From: a virus
Taxonomy: Duplodnaviria; Caudoviricetes
IMG/VR virus record: IMGVR_UViG_3300037119_004955
Span: 1 to 58,924 of that record
Reading direction: 5' to 3' (one strand)
Length of the DNA: 58,924 nucleotides
The translations under genes and the position numbers were made by a program. The notes beneath the pieces are model-generated. The model was not told the DNA's origin. It ran no database searches and was given only the letters and a program-made list of their open reading frames with translations. Position 1 is the stretch's first letter. Every line of letters begins with the position of its first letter. Positions 1-58,924 of the stretch are shown here, piece after piece.

Positions 1-464
1 ACCTCTTCATCACCCTCATCCTCACCAGCCAGCTTGGTAACTTCAAACGATACATCTGAGTCAGTTACCCAGTTTAGCCCAAGCCTTGGACCTGCCTGCC
101 TAAAGCAGTCAGTAGTGAGTATGACGAAGCTGTGGGTTTCATCAGCGTTGTGAAGTTGCGACGTCATCACTAGCGCGAACTCAAATCTAACCTTCTCATT
201 CCAGTGGTTGGGGCCACTCTCTGAGTGGGTCTCGAGCGTGAGTTCATCTTGAAACAGCCCTAGCCGTCCCCTGCGAATCTCCAGCCTCGCCTGTGGATAA
301 CTGTCGTCAGACCGTGGCTTTCTATCCGGATCCTTATCACCTTCCACCGTTGTGTAGTTGATACGGTTCTGCACCGGGAACACCGCAGCCCAAGCAGCAT
401 TATCCTCCAGAATCTCCCACAGCTTGCTGTGGATCTGGCCGAAGATGTCGAGGGGAGCAGCCAA
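1..464 (-). CDS. Putative tail terminator/completion protein, 5' part; continues across the circular join to 58792
   Basis: Manual translation from TTG at 464 (MAAPLDIFGQIHSKLWEIL...) stays open through the overlap to TAA at 58792-58794, about 180 aa. Lies between capsid and tail-tube genes. Absent from the ORF track. Confidence 0.75.
   Translation of the reverse strand, partial: MAAPLDIFGQIHSKLWEILEDNAAWAAVFPVQNRINYTTVEGDKDPDRKPRSDDSYPQARLEIRRGRLGLFQDELTLETHSESGPNHWNEKVRFEFALVMTSQLHNADETHSFVILTTDCFRQAGPRLGLNWVTDSDVSFEVTKLAGEDEGDEE
2..54. repeat. Terminal direct repeat (circular assembly overlap), left copy
   Basis: 53 nt identical to 58872-58924. Confidence 0.95.
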
Positions 465-467
465 GGA

Positions 468-938
468 TTATCCGTTACCTTCGTCGGCTGGCTCTTGTGC
501 CGAAAGAAGATCGATGAGGTCCGACTTCTTCACGCCTTCGGCATATTCGATGCCGTGCTTGTCGGCGACCGCCATCAATTCTTCCCTGTTCATGCGCGCC
601 AGTTCATTCTTTGACGGGATAGCATCCTCGTCAACTTCTTCGCCTTCGCCAGCCTCAACGCCTTCGTCTCCCTCGCCTTCGCCGGATGATTCCCGCTCCT
701 CGGCAGCCTTATCCAGCTTGTCGCGCATGAGGTCAGCATGTGGTCCTGGTGGTACGGCACCTTTTGTGGCCGCATCTTCCGTGGACTCGATAGCCTTGAT
801 CTTAACAAGGTCATCAATATTTGCCCCCATCGACTTGAGTTCGTCGCGACTCACGATGCGCCCTTCGCGGTATGGGCCGAGCATCGAACGTCGCACAATG
901 AAGTTGGCAGCAGGTGCCTTTTCAGTTTTCTTAGCCAT
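468..938 (-). CDS. Capsid-associated protein with acidic linker and C-terminal HeH/Rho-N-like motif
   Basis: Directly downstream of the capsid gene; C-terminal MNREELMAVADKHGIE...KKSDLIDLL; AAGGAG RBS. Confidence 0.6.
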   Translation of the reverse strand: MAKKTEKAPAANFIVRRSMLGPYREGRIVSRDELKSMGANIDDLVKIKAIESTEDAATKGAVPPGPHADLMRDKLDKAAEERESSGEGEGDEGVEAGEGEEVDEDAIPSKNELARMNREELMAVADKHGIEYAEGVKKSDLIDLLSAQEPADEGNG

Positions 939-1036
939 GACGGCTCCTTCTGGGAAAAAACAGTACTAAGTTCAAAACCGACTGATGAACATCCGATCAC
1001 CTGTCGGGCTGTCCTGTCGGATCAGTCGCGGTTAGT

Positions 1037-2092
1037 TTACAGGCCGGTCACGAGAACAACAGCGGATGGGAAGTAGATCACCGGACCACCATTGTGTCCT
1101 CGGTGCACTTCGATGTTTGCCGGGGTGCGCTTCTCGGCATTCACGCCGTTGGCGCGATCAACGACATATCGGTAACTGCCGGGACGGAAGTTGTTCGAAG
1201 CATTGCGGGTCATAGCGTAGTTGCCAATGACCGCATTGCCGGGACGATTTCCGATCAACACGCCGACGCCGTCAGCGATAAACTTCTTGAACGAAGACTG
1301 CGCCTCGCCGATTCTCTGTTGGTAACCGCGATCGTACACAATGATCTGCGGTACTTCCTGAGCAGCGAAGTAGCGGTTGAAGTCTGGCAGGGTATTCACC
1401 GTGCTGCCGTTGTTCACCAGTCGTCCGCCCATGTCAGATGCGTTGGTGTTGTTCAGCAACCGGTTAGCAGTAACAGAGTTGACGTACAGACGGGCAGCCG
1501 CGCCGAAGTCCACCGAGATACCAGACGCATTGCCAAGCTGCGCCATGGCTTGCAGGTCGCGAAGCGGAGTTGCCGTTGCGACTGTGGACCACGGAACGAC
1601 CGGAGTGTACGTCTGGAACGTAAACTGCGTGCGGTGCAGGTACTGTCCTGCTGGTGATCCGTCCACCTGGATCTCCAACACGCCGGTGGTGAGGAGTGTC
1701 CAGATCGAAGACTCCATTCGATCGTCTTCTCGCCCGATCAACTGAACGTCGTTCTCAGCGATGATGTCCGAGACGTCAATCGCGGTGGTCATGTCAATGA
1801 TCGAACCGGCACGCTTGGTGAGTTCCGTCTCGGTGACGTCGATAAACTCACCGAACACGCCGGGTTCGTACTCATAGGTGGACTCGCCGACTCGCACCAC
1901 TCTCGTGGGCTTACCGTCGAGGCCTCGCAGATGCTGGAGACCGTAGAAGTTGTCCTTCTGGGTCCACCGCACGTTGCCTGTGTTGAAGGGACGTGGCGGC
2001 ATGAGTTGCAGCCCAAGCCTGCCAGCACGGCTCGCCGTGACTAGCTCCGGCTCAATGGCAAAGTAAGCCGCCGAAGTAGGGTAAGTGAACAT
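1037..2092 (-). CDS. Major capsid protein (lambda gpE-like, HK97 fold)
   Basis: 351 aa; follows protease and decoration genes; gpE-like TPLRDL and IIVYD..Y segments and C-terminal GGPVIYFP; GGAG RBS. Confidence 0.85.
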   Translation of the reverse strand: MFTYPTSAAYFAIEPELVTASRAGRLGLQLMPPRPFNTGNVRWTQKDNFYGLQHLRGLDGKPTRVVRVGESTYEYEPGVFGEFIDVTETELTKRAGSIIDMTTAIDVSDIIAENDVQLIGREDDRMESSIWTLLTTGVLEIQVDGSPAGQYLHRTQFTFQTYTPVVPWSTVATATPLRDLQAMAQLGNASGISVDFGAAARLYVNSVTANRLLNNTNASDMGGRLVNNGSTVNTLPDFNRYFAAQEVPQIIVYDRGYQQRIGEAQSSFKKFIADGVGVLIGNRPGNAVIGNYAMTRNASNNFRPGSYRYVVDRANGVNAEKRTPANIEVHRGHNGGPVIYFPSAVVLVTGL

Positions 2093-2184
2093 GAGTTTCT
2101 CTCCAAAAGTGCTTTTGAGCTACGTTTCGTCTTTCCTGTTGCCCTCGTGCTACACATAGTGTCGGGGCATCTTCTGGGGAAAAA

Positions 2185-2943
2185 CTACCCAGGAATCAGC
2201 CAGAATCCATTGCCGGGCAAAACAACTGCGCCGGGTCGGCTGGTCGTAATGTCGCCGATGGAGCGACCGGTAGCCGCAGTCGTGACAACCTTCGTCAGGG
2301 TCTGGGTGTCGGCTGCTCCGCCGTTCACGGCGGTCGAAGTAAAGGCAGGAGCATTACCGGGTACGTTTGCAGTCAAAATGACCGTGACCGTGCCGGTCGC
2401 TGTGACCTCCTGGCTCATGATATCGTTGGCATTGACCAGGGCAACCAAAGCAGCTGCCACGTTGCCAGCAGTTGCCGCAGTTGCTGTAAACGTCACAGTC
2501 TCGGTGTTGCCGCCGCCGTCCGTAAAGATGATGCTGAAAATGTCGCCGATTTCGACATTTGTTGGAGTAAACGTCAGGACTTGCGTCGCTGGTGCGGCAG
2601 CGGTTCTCAAATCTAGCGGATCAAACGTGCCCGCATAGAAATACGGCATGGACTGGTTGCCCATGTTGAACCACGACGGGACGGCGGACGTACCAAAGTA
2701 CGCGATGCCGTTCGCATCAGTGGCGAAGTCATACATGGAGAACCCGGCGAACAGCTGCGTGCCGTCTGACGCACCGGATGCGAACGCATACATCAGGTTG
2801 TCGGCGGTCTTCTTCGCCACAGCCTGCCCTCGCAGGATTGAGATGCTAGGAGCAAACCTCCCAGCATGTGTCTTCGCATCCTCAGGCGACTGTGCCGGCT
2901 GAAGGATCCGAGAAGGATCGAACTGTTGGAATCGAGTGACCAT
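2185..2943 (-). CDS. Head decoration protein with extra Ig-like beta domain
   Basis: Between protease and capsid; gpD-like ILRGQAVAK...ASDG N-terminus; Thr/Ala-rich beta C-terminus; ATG 2943 with GGAG RBS. Confidence 0.65.
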   Translation of the reverse strand: MVTRFQQFDPSRILQPAQSPEDAKTHAGRFAPSISILRGQAVAKKTADNLMYAFASGASDGTQLFAGFSMYDFATDANGIAYFGTSAVPSWFNMGNQSMPYFYAGTFDPLDLRTAAAPATQVLTFTPTNVEIGDIFSIIFTDGGGNTETVTFTATAATAGNVAAALVALVNANDIMSQEVTATGTVTVILTANVPGNAPAFTSTAVNGGAADTQTLTKVVTTAATGRSIGDITTSRPGAVVLPGNGFWLIPG

Positions 2944-3036
2944 TTTGGTCTCCGTAAAAGTTGAATCATCAGTCAAGGGTTGAGCAGCCCTACATCACTA
3001 CCGATCATACTCCCAGACGGCGCGTTCTGGATTGTA

Positions 3037-4527
3037 CTAGGCGGCAGGCTTCTTCTGGGATGAAACAATGCCTGGCGGAAGCACGTCCACAGGAGCAAGA
3101 CCATATGTCGCCCGCTGCATGTTGTACTCCGGCAGGGTCATCGTCGCCGCAGATTCGCTCGCTGCTCCGTCACCCTTCGGGGCAGGCTGCGCACCAGTCT
3201 GCACCTTGGTGACATCGCCGTTCGGCTTCTCGCCGAGACACTTCTCGACCGTGTCCAGCGAGACGAAGATCCTGCCGTCCGGTGCCACCATTGTGACATT
3301 AGGCTTACCGGCAGGGTTGATTTCGTTCTTGAGCACTTCGGCCTGCGCCGGAGTGATCGTGCCGGACTTCGCCATGAAGTCAATCCGCTTCGCACCGAGA
3401 GCGATGGTCTGGGCAGCGATATTCGGATCAACCACTTGGGCAGTCGCCTTCAACTGAGTGATCTGATTAGTCAGGCTTGTGACCTGACCGGAAAGCGACT
3501 CCCTCTCAGTTGAGAGTTGCGTCGCACGTGCAATCACCTTGTCGGCAGTATCCGGGAAGTTACCGGGATCCGCCGACTCAAGACCCTGGATTGCTCGAAT
3601 CCGGGCCATCTGAGGTTGGGTAAACATTGCAGGGCTCCTGTCGGCGGCTGCCAGTTTCTTCCGTTCGGTTCCGCCGGTGCCGATCGGTAGCGAACTTCCC
3701 TTGCTGAAACGATCCAGCAGTTCTTCGTACGGCATGATGCCGTCAAGAAGTCCGTTTTGCAAACCTTTTTCTGCTAAAAACGTCGCGGCCTCAAATCCTA
3801 AGATTGTTTCCTTGTCAATCCCCCTATGCTCGCTCACATGCGAGACAAACATGTCGTTCACTTCTTCAACCTGCTCCGTGATGCGGTCGATTTCTCCTTG
3901 GGTAATCTTAGACCCAGGGAATCCCATCATCTTGTACTTGCCAGTCTTGATTTTGATGATCTTGACCCCATGTTTCTCGGCAAGCTTGGACGTGTCAGCC
4001 ATTATCACCGCCGTGCCGATAGACCCGACATTTGCCATCCGGTTAGCGTACACGGCGTTTGTTGAGCACCCGATTAGGTACGCTGCGGAACACATCTCGT
4101 CATCAGCGTAAGTGATAGTCTCCTTCATCTGCGACAGCTTGCTCAGCCGCTCCGCCACATCGAAAGAACCTGCAGCAGTGCCTCCCGGCGAGTCTATCTT
4201 CACAAGGACTTTCTTCGCTGATTCATCCCTCATCAACGCATTTACCGCGTGGACAATCTCCGCAGTGGGGGTACCGCCGAACAGCCAGGCCAGAATCCCC
4301 TGAGTCTTCATGACCGGACCCTTGATCTCCAACACCGCTACCCCATCGTGCAGGGTGTACGGGCGGTGACCATCTTCTGGAGGAGAAAAAGGCATCAGGC
4401 TAGAAGATACGAATCGGTGCGCGGCATAGTTCAATCGACACAGCCAGATGTTCCTCTGGGCGAAAAGAGCGTACTGCGAACCTGATCCTGATCCTGACGG
4501 TCTCAGCTTTCCTAGCTTAGTTTTCAT
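3037..4527 (-). CDS. S49 (SppA-like) prohead protease fused to scaffold
   Basis: IDSPGG, CSAAY, VGSIG and GKYK motifs of S49 peptidases; coiled-coil C-terminal part. Confidence 0.9.
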   Translation of the reverse strand: MKTKLGKLRPSGSGSGSQYALFAQRNIWLCRLNYAAHRFVSSSLMPFSPPEDGHRPYTLHDGVAVLEIKGPVMKTQGILAWLFGGTPTAEIVHAVNALMRDESAKKVLVKIDSPGGTAAGSFDVAERLSKLSQMKETITYADDEMCSAAYLIGCSTNAVYANRMANVGSIGTAVIMADTSKLAEKHGVKIIKIKTGKYKMMGFPGSKITQGEIDRITEQVEEVNDMFVSHVSEHRGIDKETILGFEAATFLAEKGLQNGLLDGIMPYEELLDRFSKGSSLPIGTGGTERKKLAAADRSPAMFTQPQMARIRAIQGLESADPGNFPDTADKVIARATQLSTERESLSGQVTSLTNQITQLKATAQVVDPNIAAQTIALGAKRIDFMAKSGTITPAQAEVLKNEINPAGKPNVTMVAPDGRIFVSLDTVEKCLGEKPNGDVTKVQTGAQPAPKGDGAASESAATMTLPEYNMQRATYGLAPVDVLPPGIVSSQKKPAA

Positions 4528-6101
4528 TATTCGTTCTCCTTAGGTCTTCCGCCCTGAGGTTCCGGAGTGCCAGGACGCTTCTGAGGCCCGGCTTGTTGTT
4601 TTGCGGCTGATGCTTCCTTTACCGCTTCCATCACGGAATCAATGTCAAACTTCTTCAGGGTGCTAAGCCCCAACAAGTTGATAAGCTGGTTAACGTCCAC
4701 CGTGGCAGCAAGTTCTCGAGCAAGGTTCGGCTCGTTCGAGAATGCCAGCAGCATAGCCTTCGCAGCCTGAACCTTCCTGTCCACAAGGGATGACGGCTTG
4801 ACCAGTATCTTGCCAATGGCCGACTGACCGTGGTTCAGTTCCAGAAGAGCGTTGGCGATACTTTGCACTGCGGAAGCAAACCACATGTCCTCTTTCGTGG
4901 CGGACATCGTGCCAGTGTCGGTGTGAACGCCAGCTTCCTCTTTCGTGCCGTGCTGCGCTTCCAATCCAGTCCTCGCCGATCGGTGTCCACCATTAAACAT
5001 CAGTTCTTCGGCGTGCTTCATCCTCTCGATGAGCCCGTTAATGGCTGGGCCATGGTTGCCGTAATCCAACACCTGCACATTGGTCAGGGATTTGGAAGCC
5101 AGTTCAGCGAGTATTCTGGCGTGCTCAAGCGTATTGCTTGTGCCCTTGACGTCGGCGACTAGGGACATGGACGGGAACCACACGCCGGGTGCTCCGGTGG
5201 ACAATGCCCTAATTACCTGTTCGGCGTTTGACTTGAAGCTAACCTGCGTTGGTTTCCCGTCTTCTCCAGGAGGTCCCGCATACGTGCCAGAAGGCGACGT
5301 CACGATAGTGACCATCCCGGTAATTTTCACACCGAGGCGCGCCAGCTGCTGAGCGCAGTCAAGCCATTCTTTCCAGGCGGTATCGCGAACGTTTTCCAGC
5401 CAAGATCTCCCGTACACATATCCGCCAGTCCCGGCGTTATCGTAAGTGTACAGGAATCCTTTGTACGGCGTGGGGATGTCAACGTAAGCCGCATCCGTCC
5501 CATCCGGTCCTGGCACGTTGTTTCGGATGCCCACCGGTGCCCCGGTCTCGTCGGTCAGAACCTGTGTGGACTCGTTGAGCAAGTCCTTTATACCTGCCAA
5601 CTCGTACTGACCTTCGGAAAACTGCCATTTAAGTTCGCAGGTGGCCCATCCGAAATCTCGCGCCGGCACAAACACCTGGCTAAGTAAAGCCAGCCTGATC
5701 CGGTCGATGTTGCGCCGCACGGTGTCCACCCATTCATCTTTGATAGAAGTGTCCTCGGTATCCAACTTTACATAATCATAGCTGGAACAAAGGATGATGG
5801 CGGTGCAGATTTCGCGGACTAGCTGAATCACCGGATGTTTCAACATCCACCGGTAAGTCCATGGACTCGCAATGTACGGATTACTCCATCCGGGAAAACC
5901 ACACGGATTAAGCGCACTCCCGCCGTTCCCAAACAGGTTCGGCCCCATTAGGAAAGCAGATTCGAAAGGCGCAGGAGTCTTGACCACTGCTCCGTTTATG
6001 CGGGCGTGGCCGTTGTGCTGATCACCGGTGTTGAGTCCCAGCAACTGCTTGCGATCAAGCGGCGTGCTGGAGAACCGACCCTTGGTTGTACGTATTCTCA
6101 C
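4527..6101 (-). CDS. Portal protein (Mu gp29/DUF935-like)
   Basis: 524 aa between terminase and protease; FGWATCELKW and YGRSWLE motifs resemble DUF935 portals. Confidence 0.75.
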   Translation of the reverse strand: MRIRTTKGRFSSTPLDRKQLLGLNTGDQHNGHARINGAVVKTPAPFESAFLMGPNLFGNGGSALNPCGFPGWSNPYIASPWTYRWMLKHPVIQLVREICTAIILCSSYDYVKLDTEDTSIKDEWVDTVRRNIDRIRLALLSQVFVPARDFGWATCELKWQFSEGQYELAGIKDLLNESTQVLTDETGAPVGIRNNVPGPDGTDAAYVDIPTPYKGFLYTYDNAGTGGYVYGRSWLENVRDTAWKEWLDCAQQLARLGVKITGMVTIVTSPSGTYAGPPGEDGKPTQVSFKSNAEQVIRALSTGAPGVWFPSMSLVADVKGTSNTLEHARILAELASKSLTNVQVLDYGNHGPAINGLIERMKHAEELMFNGGHRSARTGLEAQHGTKEEAGVHTDTGTMSATKEDMWFASAVQSIANALLELNHGQSAIGKILVKPSSLVDRKVQAAKAMLLAFSNEPNLARELAATVDVNQLINLLGLSTLKKFDIDSVMEAVKEASAAKQQAGPQKRPGTPEPQGGRPKENE

Positions 6102-7551: not shown

Positions 7552-7558
7552 CAGGAGA

Positions 7559-7891
7559 TCAGACCTCGTCCGTGGGAACGCCAACGTACATCTTCATGCT
7601 CTTGCCTTCGGCATCGGCGACGCGAGTGGGCACCTTGCCGTTCTCACGGTCTAGGTACTCTTTCAGATGAGCGAAGTTTCCGCCAATCATCATGTTGACG
7701 AATCCCTGCGCCGCGCTGTCCATGACGGTGCCGTCTACCGGCTTACCATCCTCACCAATTTTGGTCATCCTTGATCGCAGGATTTCGTTAATCCTGCCAA
7801 GCAGGGTGATGGGAGGCCCTCCGGAGACCGGGGCACGCACTGCCCTACGGACTGGGACGGTTTGACGATAAACTCTTGTTCTCATAGCCAT
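7559..7891 (-). CDS. Putative terminase small subunit
   Basis: Immediately upstream of terL; helical, with KEYLDRENGK motif typical of small terminases. Confidence 0.65.
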   Translation of the reverse strand: MAMRTRVYRQTVPVRRAVRAPVSGGPPITLLGRINEILRSRMTKIGEDGKPVDGTVMDSAAQGFVNMMIGGNFAHLKEYLDRENGKVPTRVADAEGKSMKMYVGVPTDEV

Positions 7892-15550: not shown

Positions 15551-15552
15551 AG

Positions 15553-49785: not shown

Positions 49786-50190
49786 ATGAACTCATGGGCT
49801 TATCAGACGCTGCTTCAGGCGGTTGAACCGATGATCGGTCGCGGCTTGTTCATAGTCCTAAACGAGAATGGTAAGCTACTCCGCATGGCGTTCGCCGGGC
49901 ACTCCAATGAACTACGCCGCGAGGGGGAGTTTCCCATGCTAGTGCATCGCCCATGCTCGTTCAGGTTTATCACGCTCGTGATGACCGGGGACACAATCTC
50001 CACATGGTGGCTGGTATCTTCTGGGGAAGAACCACTCGGCTACGCCCATGGAGAACAGTCGCGAGCAGCAGCAGGGTACGCCCGCAAACTGTTTCCATGG
50101 GCGGTAGGCCGAATGGATCTGACAGAGGTTCCGAAGTCTGGAAAGTTCATTAGTAGTAGTCGAAACCACCTGCTACATCCCACCGAATAA
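49786..50190 (+). CDS. Hypothetical protein (last gene of the plus arm)
   Basis: GAAAGG RBS; converges with the late operon. Confidence 0.5.
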   Translation: MNSWAYQTLLQAVEPMIGRGLFIVLNENGKLLRMAFAGHSNELRREGEFPMLVHRPCSFRFITLVMTGDTISTWWLVSSGEEPLGYAHGEQSRAAAGYARKLFPWAVGRMDLTEVPKSGKFISSSRNHLLHPTE

Positions 50191-53125
50191 GAGAGTCTTC
50201 TCCGGCACTGATCCACCCGAACACAGCTTCCTCACCACCGGCTGGATAGTCTGGCCAGTTCGGGCACGCTCCCAAGCTACCGATCTCCCCCACCAGTCTC
50301 TCGAAGAACGAGTCGTCTGGCGCGGACGTCGTGAACAGGCTCCACTTGTTGTCTCCCAGAACTGGGTCCCCCTGACCGTCAAACTCATCATTCGGTCCAG
50401 TTCCGTACGGAGCAGTCTTTAGATACGCCTCGAACGACACCTTCTTCCTTCGGTCTCCTGAGCCGTATGCTATCTTAGCATGCTTCATGCGGCGTTGCAT
50501 CTCGTACAATGCTGCTGGTCCAGAACACGTATGATTCGCATGAGCCTTCTTGTTAAAGGCATAAGGACCGTCTGCAAAGATAACGTGGCTCTGCCCTGCT
50601 AAGAAGTTCGTCGTAGCCTCTGCCATCGCATCGGCATCCGTGTGTGGGTCACAACCACCGCTCGTGTCGGTAATAGGTTCGCGTGCAGTGCCGACGCCGT
50701 GGTTGTCCGGCGTGCTATGCGTAGGCTCCTCTGGAGGATAGATGTTTGGGTCCGGACAGTCCGGCCAGTCCTCGTAGTAGAACGCGCCTCCCGAAGTCTT
50801 CACCAGTTCTTTGAGACTCTGCACGATCTCATCCATCACGTGCTCGCCGAAGTAGTCTCCATTCATGACCCAGCCGTATCTGGTCACGATAGTCGGTGGT
50901 ATTTTGGTCTGGTTTTCTCCAGAAAACTCGCCGGTCGGTTCGATCCAAGATCCGCTGCTTCGTTCCCAGGTGGTCCCCGGTTGTCGTTCCAATACCTCGC
51001 AAGTCCATCCCACATCAACTGTGAAGGCCTGGTCAGCGTAGTAGAATGTGTCGTTGTCGTTGTGCGTGATCGTCACATCGTGCGTGGTAGTTCCGTCGTC
51101 CTCAGTGATGCGCAACGTCCGATTCTTCCAATCATTCAGGATGTGCGCAGGTTCGTAGATGCGGTAAGCCTTACCGTTCGCCGTCGTGCTAAGTGCTTTT
51201 GTCCACGTTAGCGTACCGGAACCGTAAGTGGTGGTTAACACAGGTCGCCGTTCCCATACTCCCGCTGACGTTTCTACCTCCACGATAAAGTTGTTCCACC
51301 TACCGGTCGCGGTATTCCACAGCCCGGTTCCGGCTTTCGTCGAGTCGGACAAGCTGGTCGTGCTGCCCCCGGTGGCTGTACCGGTCTCGGTGCGCAGAAC
51401 CCCTCCAAACAGGTTCAGCGACGAGTCCCTGAAGAACCATATGTCTCCCTCTGTTGCGATACCAGACGGCGTCAACCTGTATCCAGTAAAGAAGGCATCG
51501 CGGTATTCTATATCATCGGTCGGGGTCTCATCTCCCAGAGTAGGGTCCCCGTGATTGTCTCCTCTGTATCTTGCGAAGTCTCCGTTTACAAGAGCAACTG
51601 TATCAGTAATAGTGCCGTGATCGTTGAACTCCGCGTAAGCATTGCTAGCCGCGCGGGTAGTCCACGATCCGGGATCGGTGTCGGTCGGCGGAATGACAAT
51701 GCTGGGTCCGCTAAAGTCTGGGAGGAAGCCGGTCTTTTCGTACATGTATCGGAACTCTCTCGGGATACGTCGCGTGCGTCCGAGAGAGATTGTGATCTGA
51801 TGACCATCATCTGTCGGCTCGAAGTCACTAGATTGGAGTACGGTTGCGCTGGTGAGGGTTGCGGCGCCATCCGCGAGCAGTTCGTTTGTGGTAGCGTTGC
51901 GTATCTCGTACCAACAGGGATGCGGATAGAAGGGTGCAGTCACAGAACCCACGTTGATCTCAGTGCTGCTCACGTAATCCACAGAAGTGACCACGTAGTG
52001 TGCGAGCGAGTTCTTCAAGAGTATCGCGGTGGACAGATGGATGATGTGCTCATAGCCGCTATGGTCTTTGTTCTCGTAGAACGTCCCCGCAAAGATGTCC
52101 ATCCAGGTTTGGCAGAACCGCAACGACTTTGCGACGTTCGGATTCAGGGGCTCGTCGTTCGGAGTATTACACTGATCGTCAAACTCAATCCAAGGGTCCC
52201 GGTCAAAGATAGTGACGACTTCTTCTTCATCGCAAGACTCCCCAGTCAGGATGGTGGTTGTATCTCTGGGGTAAAGAGGTAGTGAACCTATTTCTCCCAG
52301 AAGATCGCCCTCGAGTGGGACATGTGTGGACACGTTGTTTCGCGTCCCTCGATACCATATTTGGGTAGAAGCTTCTCCTCCAGACACTATGTTGGGGCGC
52401 CACTTCTTGAGATGCTCCACTACGACGAAGCTGGCTCCGACGTTCGGAGTCCACGACATAATGTCAAACGTCAGCACGGTAGCGGTATTGCTGATGATCT
52501 GAGCGCGATGCCAGAACCCGTCCGTCCCCACCACCAGTACATCCATGTCTTCGAACTGGTCTGTAGTCCAGGTCTGGGCGGTATCGGTGAGGGTGGACGT
52601 TGTGCCAGAAGTAACCGATCCGTTCCCTTTGATGCTCGGTCCCGGCCATTCTGGCCACCGCGTCAGATAGAAGTCCCCGTTTCGCTTGATGATAGTCGCG
52701 TCCCACCCTACCAGTTCAGAGAGGTCCTCTACGATGCCGAACGCGACGTTATCGCGTATGTCGGAGATAGTCAGAGTGTCGGAAGTATTAGAAGAGATCT
52801 GAGCGCGGATCAAGTCACTGGGATCAGATTCGAAACGGCGGTAGATCACGACGTCATAGTCCGAAGGGTAGTATGCCACGCCATCGTTATCTATCCAGCG
52901 ATCGGTGACCCACGACACTGGTGCTTCGCCGGGCTGTGATTCAAGCTGTAGTGTTGTCGCGGTGACGGCAGCTATCTTTCCACCACTCCAGTGAAAGCAT
53001 GATCTGGGGAAAGACGCCTGACCGATCGCGAATGCCCTCTCGTTCAAGGCATGGTAGATCGTCATTATGTTCGCGTAGGTAAGCGGGTTCCCTGCCGCCG
53101 GATAGATGTCGTCAAAACCTGGCAT
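50150..53125 (-). CDS. Large tail tip/receptor-binding protein
   Basis: 991 aa after tape measure; repeated G.ATGGTT.TL.D...W...beta modules. Confidence 0.65.
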   Translation of the reverse strand: MPGFDDIYPAAGNPLTYANIMTIYHALNERAFAIGQASFPRSCFHWSGGKIAAVTATTLQLESQPGEAPVSWVTDRWIDNDGVAYYPSDYDVVIYRRFESDPSDLIRAQISSNTSDTLTISDIRDNVAFGIVEDLSELVGWDATIIKRNGDFYLTRWPEWPGPSIKGNGSVTSGTTSTLTDTAQTWTTDQFEDMDVLVVGTDGFWHRAQIISNTATVLTFDIMSWTPNVGASFVVVEHLKKWRPNIVSGGEASTQIWYRGTRNNVSTHVPLEGDLLGEIGSLPLYPRDTTTILTGESCDEEEVVTIFDRDPWIEFDDQCNTPNDEPLNPNVAKSLRFCQTWMDIFAGTFYENKDHSGYEHIIHLSTAILLKNSLAHYVVTSVDYVSSTEINVGSVTAPFYPHPCWYEIRNATTNELLADGAATLTSATVLQSSDFEPTDDGHQITISLGRTRRIPREFRYMYEKTGFLPDFSGPSIVIPPTDTDPGSWTTRAASNAYAEFNDHGTITDTVALVNGDFARYRGDNHGDPTLGDETPTDDIEYRDAFFTGYRLTPSGIATEGDIWFFRDSSLNLFGGVLRTETGTATGGSTTSLSDSTKAGTGLWNTATGRWNNFIVEVETSAGVWERRPVLTTTYGSGTLTWTKALSTTANGKAYRIYEPAHILNDWKNRTLRITEDDGTTTHDVTITHNDNDTFYYADQAFTVDVGWTCEVLERQPGTTWERSSGSWIEPTGEFSGENQTKIPPTIVTRYGWVMNGDYFGEHVMDEIVQSLKELVKTSGGAFYYEDWPDCPDPNIYPPEEPTHSTPDNHGVGTAREPITDTSGGCDPHTDADAMAEATTNFLAGQSHVIFADGPYAFNKKAHANHTCSGPAALYEMQRRMKHAKIAYGSGDRRKKVSFEAYLKTAPYGTGPNDEFDGQGDPVLGDNKWSLFTTSAPDDSFFERLVGEIGSLGACPNWPDYPAGGEEAVFGWISAGEDSLIRWDVAGGFDYY

Positions 53126-53128: not shown

Positions 53129-53572
53129 TCAAACCGTCCCGAATCGGAAGAGGTCCCATCCCGGCACATGGTCTTCGACCATCTGGTGTATTTGTCCTTG
53201 TTTCAATCCCATGTCTTCTGCCCCTCCGCCACCTAAAATCAAGAGTAGGTCACCTACTGGGGAAAAACAAGCTAAAGCCTTATCAGTCGAGTCGTCCGGT
53301 GTGCCGAGCCAGATCTCTATCTCTTCTCCGATCAAGTCCCCGTCCAGAGTGTGGACAGTAAACGTTAGCGGGTCTCCGGCGGGGTCACTCAAGTTCACCG
53401 GGAAGGCTCGCCCGCCGGTCATCATGGGCTGCGAAGGCGTGCCGTTAGATTCTGTTTGATAGTTCAGAGCATCTACGATCTCATTAGTCGTGTTCGTGCT
53501 GGCAATTTTGCCGGGAGTCTTTCGGGAAACCAGCTTGCCTACAATCTTGTCTTCTGTCAAGTAGTCGTTCAT
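53129..53572 (-). CDS. Tail protein
   Basis: Position in the tail module. Confidence 0.55.
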   Translation of the reverse strand: MNDYLTEDKIVGKLVSRKTPGKIASTNTTNEIVDALNYQTESNGTPSQPMMTGGRAFPVNLSDPAGDPLTFTVHTLDGDLIGEEIEIWLGTPDDSTDKALACFSPVGDLLLILGGGGAEDMGLKQGQIHQMVEDHVPGWDLFRFGTV

Positions 53573-54402
53573 GCGAATCCAAATAGTGCTTCAAAGTCAG
53601 TTTCCGGGTATGGATCAGCCCTAATGATGCCGTTCGCTATGTGAGTGCCGTAAGAGTACGGAATTGACATAAGCGCGGTTATCAGGTCTGGATCTATGTC
53701 GATGTACTTCCCGGTTATAGTGTTTCTTAGCGTCCCAAACGTGGACCAGCTTTCGAGATTCTTTGTGGCAGCAGTTAACTGCCTGGACCAATATCCAGAA
53801 TACTTGGAATCCTCCGCCTCAGTGCCCTCTGTTCGCCAATACCCTGCCGGCAACCCTTGCCACGTAGCGTCATTTACATAACCAGTAAACTCCCCGGTGG
53901 CGTCTGGTGGGTCGCCGGTATTTAGTACCGTAACCGATATAACTCTCGTCGGCATGCCGAATCCCATAGGAACAACGTCTTCTGGGACGTTCTTAGTGGC
54001 ATCCAGCGGGTCCACGTAAGCGACGGTTAACTTTTCGCGGGTACCCGGCAGGTAGTGGCTAGTAATCTGGGTTATGCCACTTGATCTCCGTATGATGTAG
54101 GCCGAAGGATTGGTTCCCTGAAACGTAGAATACTGCAAAGCGACTCGCACTTGATCTTTGGTTATCGCCAGAATACGACACCGCTGAAAGATCAGTTCCG
54201 GATGCTCGACGTTATACACGGAATTCGGAACGGCATGCCCAGCAGCCTGCAATGCCTCTAACGCTTTGAACATAACTTCCTCGTCTGGACATCCTTCTAC
54301 CTCTATCTGCGTGATCAGACCTGTGCGCACGTAAGCCTGCGACTGCTGGCCGACCACTTCCAGTTCGGTTCCCTCAACGGTATCCATTTTGACGATAGCC
54401 AT
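53569..54402 (-). CDS. Distal tail/hub-like protein
   Basis: Immediately downstream of tape measure. Confidence 0.55.
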   Translation of the reverse strand: MAIVKMDTVEGTELEVVGQQSQAYVRTGLITQIEVEGCPDEEVMFKALEALQAAGHAVPNSVYNVEHPELIFQRCRILAITKDQVRVALQYSTFQGTNPSAYIIRRSSGITQITSHYLPGTREKLTVAYVDPLDATKNVPEDVVPMGFGMPTRVISVTVLNTGDPPDATGEFTGYVNDATWQGLPAGYWRTEGTEAEDSKYSGYWSRQLTAATKNLESWSTFGTLRNTITGKYIDIDPDLITALMSIPYSYGTHIANGIIRADPYPETDFEALFGFA

Positions 54403-56675
54403 TACTCCACCGCTCCCGCTAGCGCGTCTTTGAACCCGTTAGTCAGACCTCTGATTATGTCATCTTTCGCCTTCTCAATCACCGCAATGACCTTGTTCGG
54501 ATCCTGTACATCTCTCACGTTAGTGATAGACTGTCGTCTTGGGTCGAACTCCTCACCGCGGAACGAGAACAGGTATGACCGCTTCAGGTTATCCAGTTCC
54601 AGCATCGAGTTCTCGGCGATAGCCTTACCGATATCCTGTTCGCCCTTGCCGAACTGTATCGCTGCCTTAATGATCCCCCTCGTCCTGATCGTAATTGCTT
54701 CCGCCCCGATCTGATCAAACCTACCGGTAGCGAGTAGTGCTTCCTTCTCACCGGTTAGCTCAACCTTCGTCAGTATGCGGTTATCCTGATACTCCCTCTC
54801 GGCTTGTCTGGCGGCTCGCGCTTCCTGGGATAAAATAGCTACAGCGGCAGGATTGAGCATCGGCACGCCGCCCGGACCAGTCTTCATCAGCGTGTCCAGC
54901 TTAGCTAACTCATTGCGAAAGCCACCGGATAGTTGGGCCATCTCGGCAGCATGGGACATCCTCTTTTCAAGAAAGTCTGATACAGCAGCAGATGTGCGGT
55001 AATTTGACAAACTCTGCGCCGTTTGCGACTGCGTCTGATTGAATGCTTCGTGTACGCCAAGTTCAGCAAGCCTAATCGCCGTGTCACCGGTAGTGGCAGC
55101 GACAGCGACAGCCGCTGGATCAGCGAACCCAATTGCCGGGAGACCGAAAGGCCTCATTCTGCCGACTATCCCACCGCTTTGAATAGCAGCAGACAGTATC
55201 AAATTATCCTTGTTCTGCCTTGCAAGCGTTAAAGCAGCATTGGCCTGAGCAAGGGGGTTAGAAGCATTGGCAGCTATTGTGACTTGCGCTTGCCCAGAAA
55301 GTATCGCCGACACACCCTCTATCTTCATCAGCGATCTATAATTGTTCTCTGCTATGTTGATGTCTTCTTGTCTTCTGCCAACTTGTAGCCGTTCCTTTTC
55401 CAGATCCTGCCTCAAGGTGGCAAGGCGATTTCGGTTAGCGTCAGTATCACCCAACTTTTTCATGACGTTGGTTTTGAAGAAAAGAACGCCAGGTACCCCA
55501 GTAGGAACTGCAGTCTCCTGATTCATTAACGTCTCTAATTCCATTATCGACTGATTAAAAGCGTCCTCCTTTACGGAAAATTCTCCGGCTACCGTGCGGC
55601 GAGCAGATTCAAACTGGTAAATACCTTGAGTTGGTACCACTGCCGCCGAACCAGCGGCGGTCAAAGCGATACGTGAAGCGCGCCTCTCCTTCTGGGAATT
55701 AAGCAGTGCTATCGTACCCATACTTTGATTAGTTATTGATGCGGGGCCTAACTCAGCCAAGTCAGCCAGAAATCCGAGTCCTCCGCCAATGACACCAGAA
55801 AACTGCGATTGCATTCCCCTTTGGCTAGCCTCAAGATACTCCACCATGGTGGTCGCTTGAGCCATTTCGGCGCGCTCGCGCCCCTGGGCCATGCTAATCT
55901 GTCCAGCCTCCCAAAGTCCGAACATGACGCTGTACACCCCGGACATTCCAATCCCTAAGCCGCCGGACCCTCCTCTGCCTGCTCCGCCAGCTGGAGGTCT
56001 CCCCATTCCCCACCATGGGGGAAACCCTCCTCCCATACCTCCTCCCCGGTTGCCGTGCCAAGGCGGAGGAGGGCGTCTTACTCCGGTACCTCCTGGCCCA
56101 GGCAACATTCGCTGCGCAGGGCCAGTCCAAGTACTAAACGTTGATATTACCTCCCCCTCAAAGAAGTCTTCGTTTCCTCCGCCCATCGGCGGTGGCGGTG
56201 GTAGGAATCTTCCTCCCCCACCTGCTCCTCCCCTTCCACCTCCGCCTCCCGGTAAAGGTAGGAACATTCCCCCTCCGCCGCCACCTACTGCGGCAGCGGC
56301 GTACTGAGCATTGCTCAAACCGCCGGATGACATAGCGGCGACGTAAGGGGCAAGGGGGAAATCCGCAGCAGAGAGTGCGGAGTATCTTGCGTCGGAGGCA
56401 GCAACAAACTGCCCAGATGACCCCCGCCATCTTCCGGCGTTTGTATCGAGAGTATAAGTGGACCCGGAACGGGTTATAGCCGCCGTCAAGCGATCCATAG
56501 AGTTCGCGAGGCGATCCACCCCCATGGACGTGCCGATGCGGCCAGAACCCCCTGGCTCGCTGCCAAAGGTCATGCCAGCCTGTCCGCGCGCCTCTCTGGC
56601 AGCAGCTTGAGCGTCGAACTCGGTCCAGTCTCCCCGGACTCGGAACGTTAGAGGTTCGTCTCCAGCTTCACTCAT
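54402..56675 (-). CDS. Tape measure protein
   Basis: 757 aa, Ala/Gly-rich and helical, after the chaperone pair. Confidence 0.7.
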   Translation of the reverse strand: MSEAGDEPLTFRVRGDWTEFDAQAAAREARGQAGMTFGSEPGGSGRIGTSMGVDRLANSMDRLTAAITRSGSTYTLDTNAGRWRGSSGQFVAASDARYSALSAADFPLAPYVAAMSSGGLSNAQYAAAAVGGGGGGMFLPLPGGGGGRGGAGGGGRFLPPPPPMGGGNEDFFEGEVISTFSTWTGPAQRMLPGPGGTGVRRPPPPWHGNRGGGMGGGFPPWWGMGRPPAGGAGRGGSGGLGIGMSGVYSVMFGLWEAGQISMAQGRERAEMAQATTMVEYLEASQRGMQSQFSGVIGGGLGFLADLAELGPASITNQSMGTIALLNSQKERRASRIALTAAGSAAVVPTQGIYQFESARRTVAGEFSVKEDAFNQSIMELETLMNQETAVPTGVPGVLFFKTNVMKKLGDTDANRNRLATLRQDLEKERLQVGRRQEDINIAENNYRSLMKIEGVSAILSGQAQVTIAANASNPLAQANAALTLARQNKDNLILSAAIQSGGIVGRMRPFGLPAIGFADPAAVAVAATTGDTAIRLAELGVHEAFNQTQSQTAQSLSNYRTSAAVSDFLEKRMSHAAEMAQLSGGFRNELAKLDTLMKTGPGGVPMLNPAAVAILSQEARAARQAEREYQDNRILTKVELTGEKEALLATGRFDQIGAEAITIRTRGIIKAAIQFGKGEQDIGKAIAENSMLELDNLKRSYLFSFRGEEFDPRRQSITNVRDVQDPNKVIAVIEKAKDDIIRGLTNGFKDALAGAVE

Positions 56676-56912: not shown

Positions 56913-57431
56913 CTAGGTGCCTCCTCCTGGCTGCTTCGTAGGGTCCTGTTCCGGCTCCCTGTCCTTGTTACGCGGATTCGTTTCGGATCGGTCGTCCATG
57001 TCGGCGAGTGCCCACGCGAGGCTTAGCACCCTACCGATACTATTGCCTGAGGTCAGCATCTTGTCAATCACTCCATCTTCAAGCGGAACATCCTTCCCCA
57101 TCGGTCCCACCCACTTCGCTTTCTTGAACTGTTTGGAACACACTGACTTCGCTCCGCCCGGTGCCAGCAAATACTTCTTGATGGAGTGGTAGTCCGGCGG
57201 ATCCTGCGGATAAAGAGTGAGGTACTCCCTCTTCTGAGCATCATTCAACCCGGCAGTCACCGTGGTAACTCTTTTCTCCAGAAGATCGTTCCCCAGCGAG
57301 TCAAGATCGTCGATGGTAAGTTTTGGTACTTCGTACGTTCCGACGCCTTCGATATCTACAACCAGCGGAGCCATTCGAGCCTGAAGATAATGCATGGGTC
57401 TTTCCTTTTCAAACGTGGACGGGGTGAGCAT
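56913..57431 (-). CDS. Tail assembly chaperone (gpG-like)
   Basis: Between tail tube and tape measure; ends DPT. Confidence 0.65.
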   Translation of the reverse strand: MLTPSTFEKERPMHYLQARMAPLVVDIEGVGTYEVPKLTIDDLDSLGNDLLEKRVTTVTAGLNDAQKREYLTLYPQDPPDYHSIKKYLLAPGGAKSVCSKQFKKAKWVGPMGKDVPLEDGVIDKMLTSGNSIGRVLSLAWALADMDDRSETNPRNKDREPEQDPTKQPGGGT

Positions 57432-57473
57432 CTTCTGGAGAAAAACAATAACCGTGTCCGATCGACCGACTGT

Positions 57474-57920
57474 CTACGGCGGAGGCGTGCGGTCCCAGGT
57501 GACTACGTACGCGCCTTTGCTTAGGAACCTTGCGGAGATACGCATGTTCTGACCGGCAATCCTGATGGCCGATGCTTCGGTGAAGTTTGCATCCAGGGCG
57601 ATAGTGCAGCCGGTGTGGTACGTGAGTAGGAGTGCGACGCCTTGCGGTGCCGGGATAAGAGGCCCTGATGACGGCCCATCAAACTTGCCGAGTCCGCTGG
57701 CACTGCCCACAAGCTGCGAGCGTCCAGGTTCCTGATCCGCGCTACCCTCATTGCAGAAGGTATCGGCGCGAGTCATCTCGGTGAGTTCGGTGACGTCGAA
57801 GGCATCGAGGATACACTTGTAAGAGTGAATCTCTACGCCGTCGTCGATTGTGAAATCGGCGGTGCCGCTCTTCCCAGTGATGGTTTGCGACGTGGTGTCT
57901 GGTACTAGCGTGCCGGGCAT
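57474..57920 (-). CDS. Major tail tube protein
   Basis: 148 aa; ITGKSG...D.T..C....PG...GS.SG tube-like pattern; AAGGAG RBS. Confidence 0.7.
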   Translation of the reverse strand: MPGTLVPDTTSQTITGKSGTADFTIDDGVEIHSYKCILDAFDVTELTEMTRADTFCNEGSADQEPGRSQLVGSASGLGKFDGPSSGPLIPAPQGVALLLTYHTGCTIALDANFTEASAIRIAGQNMRISARFLSKGAYVVTWDRTPPP

Positions 57921-57938
57921 TTGAATGCTCCTTTTACG

Positions 57939-58343
57939 TTATGGCCGAATGCGGCCAGACTTCATGCCTTGGGCATAGTACTTTTTGAACTTTGCCCGAG
58001 CATCTCTCGCTATCTGCCTTTTGGACTTAGCCCAGAACGGTCTAGGCTCCATGTTGGAAGTTCCGTGTTCAAGCCACTTTGAATGTCGGGCTCTGGTACG
58101 AAAACGAAGGTCTTCGATGGTGCTGGCTTTCGACACCACGTTGTAGCTGATACCGTTCCACAGCCTGCTTCTATCGCGACGTGGGAACTCATAAGGGTCA
58201 GATCGGATTATGGTTCCGCCAACCCTCTGCACCCGGATGCCGATGTTCTGCCGAATGTGCGCTACCCCCTGCTTCCCTATCTCTTCAAGAGCCTTCTTGG
58301 AAGCACGGCGGGATTTAGCAGATACATTGCTACGAAAGGACAT
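57939..58343 (-). CDS. HK97 gp10-like neck protein
   Basis: P.RD...L..GI and LEHGTSNMEPRPF motifs. Confidence 0.8.
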   Translation of the reverse strand: MSFRSNVSAKSRRASKKALEEIGKQGVAHIRQNIGIRVQRVGGTIIRSDPYEFPRRDRSRLWNGISYNVVSKASTIEDLRFRTRARHSKWLEHGTSNMEPRPFWAKSKRQIARDARAKFKKYYAQGMKSGRIRP

Positions 58344-58792
58344 CAGCCTTCTTTCATCTTCTCTGCAGCAGGTTTCGCACCGGTTCCAGTCTTAGGCTCC
58401 TCCCATTCGGGAGATCCCGTACCACCGGTCAGGTCGATTTCCTTGCCGCCGGTCATAAACACGGTCTCAGTTACGCCGCCTCCCGGAGCAGCGCGTACCA
58501 GACCCGGCACTTCCGTGAGTTTCTCAGGAACCGTGATTTCGACCTTCTTTGCTCCGGGGAATGCATTGACCCGCTGGTACATCCTAGCGAGGCCTTCTGC
58601 ATCAAGAATACCCCCGCCCACCGCTACGTTGTGATGGGTCACCTTGTCGTTGTGATGCGTGACCTTCACCCTGAATGACAGTCTTCCGCCAGGACGTCGC
58701 CTCACAACTCTCGGGGAGTTAGGATCCACGTCCTCTGGATCTCTTTCACTACCTGCCCCTCCTGCTCCCGCAAGTCTTGGATCCTTAGCCAT
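58343..58792 (-). CDS. Hypothetical protein in the head-tail region
   Basis: Coupled to both neighbours; internal KVTHHN duplication. Confidence 0.55.
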   Translation of the reverse strand: MAKDPRLAGAGGAGSERDPEDVDPNSPRVVRRRPGGRLSFRVKVTHHNDKVTHHNVAVGGGILDAEGLARMYQRVNAFPGAKKVEITVPEKLTEVPGLVRAAPGGGVTETVFMTGGKEIDLTGGTGSPEWEEPKTGTGAKPAAEKMKEG

Positions 58793-58924
58793 TACGATCC
58801 TTTCAGCAGCACTCCGTCTATCTCACCGGACATTGCTACTAAAAATGTTGTCATTGTTCTGACGTGCGCATCCTCTTCATCACCCTCATCCTCACCAGCC
58901 AGCTTGGTAACTTCAAACGATACA
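58792..58924 (-). CDS. 3' part of the junction-spanning tail terminator-like gene
   Basis: In frame with 1-464; TAA overlaps the ATG of the next gene (TAATG). Confidence 0.7.
   Translation of the reverse strand, partial: VSFEVTKLAGEDEGDEEDAHVRTMTTFLVAMSGEIDGVLLKGS
58872..58924. repeat. Terminal direct repeat, right copy
   Basis: Identical to 2-54. Confidence 0.95.

Follow-up and report, generated by a model that had tools for sequence, protein, structure and literature searches.

The 58,924-nucleotide DNA of an uncultured soil phage (Caudoviricetes; IMG/VR virus record IMGVR_UViG_3300037119_004955, analysed over its whole length and called here the window) carries a dispersed motif, in its exact form the 17-mer CATCTTCTGGAGAAAAA, which recurs in both orientations at a density of about 1.1 sites per kb and lies mostly inside genes. 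The motif is a real DNA signal of a whole clade of phages. As the best explanation, although a tentative one, we propose that its copies are recognition sites in double-stranded DNA for one clade-conserved, sequence-specific protein that would act genome-wide.

Excess of the motif over its background

The exact 17-mer occurs six times, at 13299, 22338, 38496, 48403 and 57429 on the plus strand and at 15430 on the minus strand, and 100 dinucleotide-preserving shuffles contain no match. With up to three mismatches allowed there are 29 copies against 0.07 expected. A position matrix, iterated and applied at a threshold of 0.5 matches per shuffled genome, finds 63 sites (33 on the plus and 30 on the minus strand), and a second, wider matrix finds 66. 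The original prediction had estimated roughly one copy per kb, which these counts bear out, and had named 26 positions, each of which has a copy at most 3 bp away (six exact and 20 with one to six mismatches).

Genes were mapped with a simple caller, based on open reading frames (ORFs) and a codon model, that was written for this analysis. The permissive map holds 88 ORFs over 92.5% of the genome, so that the intergenic share is 7.5%. Wholly within ORFs lie 48 of the 63 sites, in three frames and both orientations, and the remaining 15 are intergenic. When the codon order of the same ORFs was shuffled (n = 100), a mean of 0.73 intragenic sites was obtained (standard deviation 0.88, maximum 4), and when synonymous codons were shuffled with the proteins kept (n = 100) the mean was 6.64 (standard deviation 2.36, maximum 13). 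Codon choice and peptide sequence are therefore both bent towards the motif. Selection at the nucleic-acid level, which had been predicted from the reading of the motif in different frames, is strongly supported by both shuffles, and the excess inside coding regions persists against a codon-matched background. The peptides quoted in that connection were also correct: FSPEG and YFSRR in TerL, FSPPED in the protease, SSGEK in the primase-helicase, and LLEK in the UDG-like protein and the nuclease. That many copies abut start codons agrees with the intergenic share of sites (15 of 63), but only six copies are sense copies placed as ribosome-binding sites.

Outside this lineage the word is rare. 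In a viral collection, each of the 51 stretches that contain the exact 17-mer has a single copy, and they come from scattered taxa; metagenome and genome collections gave at least 119 and at least 120 stretches, again with a single copy each among the matches listed (80 and 80). The 10-mer core occurs at about 0.01 per kb in three unrelated bacterial genomes, and a literature search for the motif words returned nothing beyond unrelated primers, while a search by description led only to a report on the Cluster O repeats. With only scattered one-copy stretches among the matches listed in the three collections, a host-wide or otherwise widespread word was rejected; judged by these matches, the exact 17-mer appears to be lineage-specific.

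Architecture of the motif

Four bases, C7, T8, G9 and G10, are invariant in all 63 sites. Positions A16 (61 of 63), T5 (56), T6 (55) and A17 (55) are also strong, whereas the AGAA arm is weak (A or G in 35 and 28 sites, G in 38, A in 35 and A in 47). The 5' flank is G-rich (each of positions -7 to -3 has G in 26-35 of the 63 sites), T does not occur at position -1, and +18 is preferentially C. Altogether the conserved block is asymmetric and about 27 bp long; beyond this length the likeness of the flanks ends, and the two flanks are unlike each other. Variation within the motif consists almost entirely of transitions. In the logo of the 63 sites there is no second conserved block of the two-part promoter type. 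With its length of about 27 bp and its four invariant bases, the block has the size of a protein site rather than that of a restriction or Chi word.

The core had been described as an inverted repeat, and the consensus does literally read TTCT-GG-AGAA; however, TTCTGG is conserved in 55-63 of the 63 sites and the AGAA arm in 35-47, so that it is not a true dyad. The comparison with parS- or matS-like sites, which presupposes dyad symmetry, fails on this asymmetry.

The core is shared by related phages

TerL has many relatives at 52-60% identity, some of them encoded on metagenome contigs of 55-60 kb. A TerL profile retrieved 80 viral loci, of which only two share further head genes, and a capsid profile search added four more related records. 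These are G001 (62.2 kb, complete), G003 (58.9 kb), G005 (55.9 kb, complete), G004 (36.6 kb), G002 (11 kb) and G006 (7 kb), with capsid identities of 54-59% to the window and GC contents from 48 to 60%; G001 has 21 proteins in common with the window, in conserved order.

The 10-mers that recur most often are variants of the same word in each of the six records, G006 being judged by these alone. The core TTCTGGRGAA is present in all six, which share the head module, at 0.5-0.8 per kb, while the flanks differ. Matrices built for each genome gave 29 sites in G001 (consensus TTTCTGGGGAAGG), 41 in G003 (gccacTTTCTGGGGaagA), 38 in G005 (CatcTCCTGGGgaaAaA), 22 in G004 (consensus as in G003) and nine in G002 (TTCTGGGGggaAg), to be compared with the 66 of the window (ggCATCTTCTGGAgaAAAA), where the density is highest. 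Site variants in the clade include AGAAAAA, GGAAGG and GGAAATAG. The core is thus a character of the clade, and the flanks are lineage-specific.

Two relatives carry a further dispersed repeat, the palindrome ACACCGAAAWTTTCGGTGT. G001 contains it 25-26 times, in most cases at a gene boundary and frequently adjoining a TTCTGG-type copy, and the 11-kb fragment G002 has five copies (2383, 4371, 6122, 8474 and 10491); the window has none, its one match at two mismatches being at chance level. G005 contains about six copies of another repeated word, similar to AAGTGCTTGTATTTGC and unrelated to the main motif.

Placement of the copies

Placement was counted on conservative gene maps of four genomes, the window (G000), G001, G003 and G005, which together have 174 sites. 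Within ORFs (108 of 174) there is no orientation bias, 55 copies being antisense and 53 sense, and in the window overall 26 are sense and 37 antisense (p = 0.21). Junction copies, that is those not wholly within an ORF, are antisense in 46 cases and sense in 20 (p = 0.002; 30 and 13 when the window is left out, p = 0.014). Among the top-scoring half of the sites, the late regions have 34 antisense against 7 sense copies and the early regions 27 against 20. The strong junction copies of the conserved head module are without exception antisense in the four genomes, and some of the junctions are shared: that between the genes for the major head protein (MCP) and g468 has copies in three to four genomes, and the g2185/MCP, protease/portal and TerL N-terminus/g7559 junctions in two to three.

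Six sense junction copies of the window (15430, 20363, 22338, 33906, 38496 and 41668) lie 0-12 nt before a start, where they supply GGAG plus an A-rich spacer; other genes have ordinary GGAG- or AGGA-type sites. Because it carries GGAG and an A-rich tail, the sense form is a strong ribosome-binding site for this host. Several antisense junction copies place GAAGGAG or AAGAGG 5-9 nt before a start, although the distance from antisense copy to start ranges from 5 to 76 nt.

Intragenic positions differ between orthologues. The copies sit in linkers and variable termini, or result from substitutions in conserved peptides, and not from insertions; in ThyX, for instance, the conserved PLED or PVED of the relatives is PPED in the window (CPPEDARN), which fits the motif. 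Neighbours at most 300 bp apart are inverted in 27 of 33 pairs in the four genomes (p = 0.0003; 15 of 20 without the window, p = 0.04). Inverted neighbours differ from each other by as much as random pairs do (a mean of 12.4 and 12.0 differences, respectively; p = 0.69). There is no genome-wide strand polarity (two-breakpoint test, p = 0.19). Spacing is slightly more even than random in two of the four genomes (coefficients of variation 0.81, p = 0.046, and 0.71, p = 0.038) but not in G003 and G005 (p = 0.46 and 0.40).

A predicted genome-wide binding protein

A site of this size and asymmetry that is absent elsewhere, with a conserved core and diverging flanks, argues for a sequence-specific protein that would have diverged together with its sites. 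We infer that this protein reads the motif and that it may be encoded by the phage; it might be a silencer, a roadblock or an architectural factor. Selection would act mainly on the number of sites carried rather than on their place. Copies would arise by point changes where coding tolerates them, as in linkers, variable termini, PxED- or LLEK-like peptides and gene junctions, and would be lost again in relatives. The sense form, as a strong internal ribosome-binding site, would be kept out of the highly expressed late operon except exactly before a start. Close direct repeats of 17-27 bp would be avoided because they are deletion-prone, the phage having its own exonuclease and annealing-type proteins, and the close pairs that survive would be inverted. 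Binding sites for a phage-encoded protein had been the original prediction, and they are still the best reading, with the core conserved in six related records while the flanks diverge, although no binder was identified.

For the reader itself, 64 of the 88 candidate ORFs were scanned against Pfam and/or PHROGs. No RNA polymerase, methyltransferase or ParAB match was found among the 64, many of which are match-less; with the same limit, the scans agree with the earlier remark that no repressor or integrase is evident. The product of 34416-35033, one of two candidates proposed, is the only unidentified non-structural protein conserved in all four genomes (38-42% identity; 98 homologues), and its predicted fold is confident (pLDDT 87.5). 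It had no match in Pfam or PHROGs and nothing useful in the Atlas. It is present in G001, G003 and G005, which are the relatives with complete or near-complete genomes, and shows no recognisable DNA-binding fold; it is a lead and not evidence. The other candidate, 29327-30307, was found in only one relative. Further clade-conserved ORFs without an assigned role are 7559-7891, 7882-8679, 53569-54402 and 57474-57920. The product of g468 (468-938, minus strand, directly after the MCP gene) has a Rho_N/HeH-type nucleic-acid-binding tail (Pfam, 29.4 bits, above the cut-off), for which PHROGs gives the label Arc-like repressor or endonuclease VII. As a clade-wide specific reader it was rejected, the Rho_N/HeH motif being found in the window and G003 and not detected in G005 or G001, and being of a general binding type. 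The HNH endonuclease (32639-33016) was likewise rejected, with an orthologue only in G001.

Several points weigh against a genome-wide binding protein of the phage. No match to a helix-turn-helix regulator, repressor, sigma factor, integrase or ParB was found in the 64 scanned ORFs, many of them match-less. The candidate 34416-35033 had no Foldseek match at E <= 0.001, and its best VIA Z was 3.4, below the noise level stated for the tool, and the weak rows include many winged-helix domains. It is rare for a regulator to need three quarters of its sites within genes. A host factor would be equally compatible with the conserved core, and an RNA-level or transcription-linked function would also explain the 34 antisense against 7 sense copies of the late regions. 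Finally, the 300-bp and top-half thresholds were picked after the data had been seen, and all gene maps come from our own simple ORF caller.

Alternative explanations

The placement rules could reflect an element that works in RNA, the sense form being a ribosome-binding, start-associated sequence and the antisense form a pyrimidine-rich anti-ribosome-binding or regulator-binding element of intercistronic mRNA, with inverted copies pairing and so controlling translation or processing. The six sense copies 0-12 nt before starts, far above random placement, the antisense junction copies that supply GAAGGAG or AAGAGG, the antisense excess at junctions (46 against 20) and among strong late sites, the inversion of close neighbours (27 of 33) and the near restriction of variation to transitions all agree with it. 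However, 108 of the 174 sites lie in ORFs without orientation bias and at positions that are not conserved, inverted neighbours show no excess likeness and no compensatory signal, the antisense copies stand at varying distances from starts, no Rfam family was matched, and avoidance of deletion-prone direct repeats explains the inverted neighbours as well; we consider this account unlikely. The reverse complement, TTTTTCTCCAGAAGATG, pointing with the late genes, could instead be a promoter or another transcription signal for a phage-modified or phage-encoded RNA polymerase, in a way comparable to T4 with its many late promoters. In four genomes the strong head-module junction copies do all follow the direction of the genes, some of them at shared junctions, the single block of about 27 bp resembles promoters of single-subunit polymerases, and sigma-70-like promoters in 1-20000 are at chance level (seven found, 9.0 expected). 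Yet about half of the strong early sites (20 against 27) would fire antisense, exact copies occur in both orientations, intragenic sites turn over, and the 64 scanned ORFs include no RNA polymerase or sigma factor, although four large ORFs are match-less, so that a promoter role is judged quite improbable.

Turnover of positions at a kept density would also be expected of a density-selected signal of self-identity or recombination, comparable to Chi or uptake sequences, that marks phage DNA for a translocating enzyme (the helicase of the clade with a PD-(D/E)XK nuclease, or the terminase) and that protects this DNA, or favours its recombination or packaging whatever the place of a permuted end. 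The balance of strands (33 and 30), the slightly even spacing in two of four genomes, the circular or permuted genome map and the retention by the clade of an SNF2-type helicase, a PD-(D/E)XK nuclease, an AAA_24 protein and a RuvC-like protein are in line with it. But Chi and uptake words are host-genome features of 5-12 nt, we know of no self-signal of this length, polarity is absent, spacing is not even in G003 and G005, and the orientation rule of the late regions needs a separate explanation, which makes this rather improbable. In its phage-specific form, a phage 'self' signature, a long clade-specific word present about once per kb in both orientations would be kept by density selection alone, and a phage-encoded translocating or coating factor would tell phage from host DNA by it; this we think unlikely, but if true it would give a virus its own counterpart of Chi or uptake sequences, which would serve to protect the DNA from nucleases, to support recombination-dependent replication or to let headful packaging begin at any permuted end. 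Sequence-specific nicking or base modification, also raised in the original prediction, could be due to the HNH endonuclease, whose gene belongs to the replication module and is preceded, at 32 nt, by a motif copy, or to the nucleotide-metabolism cluster at 41690-45354 with its deoxyribosyltransferase, HD phosphohydrolase, short-chain dehydrogenase and long ThyX-like genes. It is very improbable: the nick systems of tf, T5 and phiKMV-like phages obey a one-strand rule with which 33 plus-strand and 30 minus-strand sites conflict, a genome nicked about 60 times over its two strands, with some opposite-strand nicks 34-150 bp from each other, would break, and G003 and G005 carry the motif with no HNH orthologue. 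The least probable account is that of a short sequence with no function, which biased gene conversion or some other drive has spread and which is tolerated wherever the harm is slight. Positions do turn over and sit where proteins tolerate change, but the copies were built by substitution in aligned conserved peptides and not by insertion, their flanks are not shared beyond about 27 bp, and the core persists through 54-59% capsid identity and GC contents of 48 to 60%.

Relation to known dispersed repeats

The stoperators of Cluster A mycobacteriophages, the sites of L5-type repressors, are 13 bp long and asymmetric, occur in tens of copies predominantly in one orientation, and are reported to serve the immunity repressor of temperate phages (PMC6550527, PMC9283540); their variants differ between related phages, with the repressor co-diverging with its sites (PMC6550527). 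The motif of the window resembles them in its asymmetry, in its tens of copies (63-66), in the consensus variants between related phages and in an orientation rule relative to transcription at intergenic sites. It differs in being 17-27 bp long, in having about 75% of its copies within ORFs, in lacking a single orientation (the bias is confined to junctions and strong late sites) and in the absence of a repressor, integrase or parABS match among the 64 scanned ORFs, many of them match-less. Cluster O mycobacteriophages (Corndog), not evidently temperate, have more than 30 copies of a 17-bp dyad repeat, about a third of them in coding regions, whose function is given as unknown and for which protein binding has been suggested, in some process apart from the initiation of transcription (PMC4351075). 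The number of copies, above 30 throughout a phage with no evident temperate lifestyle, is a common trait. The Cluster O repeat is, however, a perfect 7-bp inverted repeat, whereas the motif is asymmetric, about twice as dense and mostly intragenic; a palindrome of the Cluster O type is ACACCGAAAWTTTCGGTGT of G001 and G002, which the window does not have.

In Cluster K, start-associated sequences are reported to be conserved words that include a Shine-Dalgarno sequence directly before a subset of gene starts (PMC4351075, PMC3203893). A Shine-Dalgarno-bearing word before some starts is also found here, but in only six of 63 copies, and unlike these sequences or plain ribosome-binding sites 48 of 63 copies lie wholly in ORFs and 37 of 63 are antisense. 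The nick sites of T5, phiKMV-like and tf/LUZ24-like phages are short conserved words at 4-14 sites on one strand, with variants between relatives and a role reported as unknown (PMC3517423). Here too short conserved words are scattered over the genome with variants between relatives, but they are found on both strands.

Like uptake sequences and Chi, the motif occurs about once per kb in both orientations, lies within genes, and turns over in position at a kept density; unlike them, it is a longer word seen only in a phage clade and shows no Chi-like polarity switch. Uptake sequences (USS/DUS) and Chi are words of bacterial chromosomes, 5-12 nt long and read by host machinery, which reach a density near one per kb in both orientations and in several frames of genes, with turnover of positions while the density is kept; USS have an extended asymmetric consensus around a hard core. 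The motif is thus a dispersed phage repeat that lacks a defining feature of each of these phage families: the predominance of one orientation in stoperators (for whose repressor the 64 scanned ORFs gave no match), the dyad of Cluster O repeats and parS-like sites, the fixed position of start-associated sequences before starts and the restriction of nick sites to one strand. What is unusual is its density, its being mostly written into coding sequence and its conservation across an uncultured soil clade.

Copies along the window

Late genes occupy the minus strand at 1-16.4 kb and 50.2-58.9 kb, where plus-strand copies (+) are antisense and minus-strand copies (−) sense; the early and replication genes are on the plus strand, and there the reverse holds. 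Strand and score, the latter from the first matrix (63 sites), are given in brackets. In the head module, 944-960 (+, 26.3) lies at the junction of the MCP gene (1037-2092, minus) with g468, its GGAG end being a Shine-Dalgarno sequence 5 nt before the start at 938, and 2168-2184 (+, 28.7) lies at the g2185/MCP junction, as does a copy of the same orientation in G001. The protease gene (3037-4527, minus) has a copy in its last codons (3049-3065; +, 25.8) and one in its N-terminal part (4371-4387; +, 28.9; FSPPED), the portal-like gene (4527-6044, minus) has two weaker copies (4834-4850; −, 18.4, and 5259-5275; −, 16.9), and TerL (6055-7551, minus) has a weaker one in a conserved stretch (6551-6567; +, 17.5; YFSRR) and another in its variable N-terminal extension (7443-7459; +, 30.3; FSPEG). 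Deep in ORF 8672-10204 is 9125-9141 (+, 27.2). The exact 17-mer at 13299-13315 (+, 31.8) is intergenic, 13 nt before the start at 13285, with a weaker inverted partner at 13041-13057 (−, 19.3) in ORF 12299-13285. That at 15430-15446 (−, 34.5) is the ribosome-binding site of ORF 13778-15427 (GGAGAAAAAcaATG), which itself contains 13876-13892 (+, 26.5) and the inverted partner 15187-15203 (+, 25.5); 16398-16414 (+, 27.6) lies 5 nt before the start at 16392. On the other late side, the 991-aa ORF (50150-53125) holds 50349-50365 (−, 18.6; weak), 50912-50928 (−, 19.4) and 52290-52306 (−, 18.5; weak), ORF 53129-53572 holds 53251-53267 (+, 21.6), and the 757-aa ORF (54402-56675) has weak copies at 54819-54835 (+, 16.2) and 55686-55702 (+, 17.0). 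The copy at 57271-57287 (−, 22.6) encodes part of DLLEKRV in ORF 56913-57395, and the exact 17-mer at 57429-57445 (+, 34.0) is at a junction, its CAT being the first ATG of ORF 56913-57431.

The early region begins with 16788-16804 (+, 24.4), followed by the intergenic copy 18840-18856 (+, 27.0), whose 5' half pairs with the following CCAGGAGAGG; 18840-18866 is a perfect 10-bp hairpin, CCTCTCCTGG-AGAAAAA-CCAGGAGAGG, with AGAAAAA as loop. About ten further copies have CCAG or CCCA directly 3', giving a short CTGG/CCAG stem with the A-tract as loop. The ribosome-binding site of ORF 20382-20720 is 20363-20379 (+, 29.7). Then come 21647-21663 (−, 24.1) at the 3' end of ORF 20639-21691, 22159-22175 (−, 21.9) in ORF 22064-22363, the exact 17-mer 22338-22354 (+, 31.6) 12 nt before the start at 22367, 22765-22781 (−, 25.1) in ORF 22612-22887, and the intergenic 22914-22930 (−, 22.1), whose GAAGGAG end is a Shine-Dalgarno sequence 9 nt before the start at 22940. 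Intergenic copies before starts are also 23686-23702 (−, 12.6; weak; start at 23715), 24015-24031 (−, 20.2; 24039), 26940-26956 (−, 30.5; 26980) and 39758-39774 (−, 24.4; 39799). Between the first and third of these are 24742-24758 (−, 26.1; RFSPEE), a weak copy at 24922-24938 (+, 12.8) and 26785-26801 (+, 21.4) in ORF 26668-26919; another weak copy is 23615-23631 (+, 16.9). Intragenic copies follow at 29199-29215 (−, 23.7) and at 29719-29735 (−, 22.7) in ORF 29327-30307.

Upstream of the HNH gene start at 32639, by 32 nt, is 32591-32607 (−, 22.4). The cpYpsA-like (SLOG) gene (33020-33547, plus) contains 33142-33158 (−, 19.4) and the weak 33258-33274 (+, 14.2), and 33906-33922 (+, 27.5) is 3 nt before an in-frame ATG at 33926 of ORF 33851-34225. 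Three copies are in the SNF2-type helicase gene (35645-35661; −, 19.4, 36259-36275; −, 25.9, and 36389-36405; +, 20.6) and one is in the MazG-like gene (37353-37769, plus) at 37669-37685 (−, 26.3). The exact 17-mer 38496-38512 (+, 27.8) forms both the end of the UDG-like gene (HLLEKK and stop) and a ribosome-binding site directly before the start at 38513; 41668-41684 (+, 25.1) is a ribosome-binding site 5 nt before the start at 41690, and 42187-42203 (+, 21.2) is at the 3' end of ORF 41690-42238. In the short-chain dehydrogenase gene, 43431-43447 (−, 18.4) is 34 bp from its inverted partner 43465-43481 (+, 22.4). The ThyX-like gene has 44301-44317 (−, 18.3), 44745-44761 (−, 27.3) in the conserved CPPEDARN stretch and 45127-45143 (+, 20.7) in the C-terminal extension; the DNA polymerase gene has 46224-46240 (+, 19.2) and the weak 46476-46492 (−, 16.6). 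In the primase-helicase gene are the weak 47817-47833 (−, 16.9), the exact 17-mer 48403-48419 (+, 31.3) in the Toprim-helicase linker (ASSGEKK) and 49403-49419 (−, 23.0); G003 has motif copies in the same linker, one of them in opposite orientation. The last early copy is 50015-50031 (+, 26.4) in ORF 49786-50190.

The phage and other features of its genome

The window is rated 99% complete, and its final 53 bases or so duplicate its start. The phage occurs in soil metagenomes (six runs were found, and no RNA run is listed); in the public assembly of one run the same phage is a contig of 58,864 bases whose circular permutation differs from that of the window. Four runs were compared as assembled contigs. 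All have the same phage, and the listed differences, only at 26488-26505, come from short foreign-looking contigs, so that there is no strain variation.

Late genes also include the neck protein (57939-58343, minus), and the plus strand further encodes RuvC-like and AAA_24 proteins and a PD-(D/E)XK nuclease. For replication the phage has a family A polymerase and a T7 gp4-like primase-helicase with zinc-finger and Toprim parts. The polymerase has its best cultured-phage match at 23% identity, and a query with it against viral contigs gave no close relative. A capsid query against 401 sampled Planctomycetota genomes found no match, which is uninformative on the host if the phage is lytic. Searches of the window found no tRNA and no Rfam family, and intrinsic terminators in 1-20000 are at chance level. 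The cluster at 41690-45354 comprises a nucleoside 2-deoxyribosyltransferase, a YfbR-like HD phosphohydrolase, the short-chain dehydrogenase and a 423-aa ThyX-like protein whose N- and C-terminal extensions are not present in the G003 and G005 orthologues; with the cpYpsA-like and MazG-like proteins nearby, it may point to a modified DNA base. Four large minus-strand late ORFs, 13778-15427 (549 aa), 8672-10204 (510 aa), 50150-53125 (991 aa) and 54402-56675 (757 aa), had no Pfam or PHROG match, and an unrecognised enzyme, for example a polymerase, may be among them.

An intergenic stretch at 15468-15542, immediately upstream of ORF 13778-15427 and of the exact motif copy before it (15430), forms a perfect 10-bp tandem array of AGCTTATCGG (6.6 units) plus one further unit (seven exact units, minus strand). 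The public assembly of the same phage opens its circle exactly within this array (15497/15504). The period of one helical turn suggests putative iterons, or a pac/terminase site. Tandem repeats of 18/36 bp at 41289-41377 in ORF 40731-41591 give its product an acidic repeat rich in Pro, Glu and Ala.

Significance

Known dispersed phage repeats are mostly unexplained, and almost all come from cultured actinobacteriophages and Pseudomonas phages. The motif described here is denser and has three quarters of its copies in coding sequence, at a cost in codon and even amino-acid choice, and its lineage-specific flanks around one core provide a natural set of site variants through which co-variation could lead to the reader. 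Whether phages maintain genome-wide signals of identity or silencing could be tested cleanly on it, and if the copies were only the site set of a regulator, they would still be a new stoperator-like system outside the actinobacteriophages.

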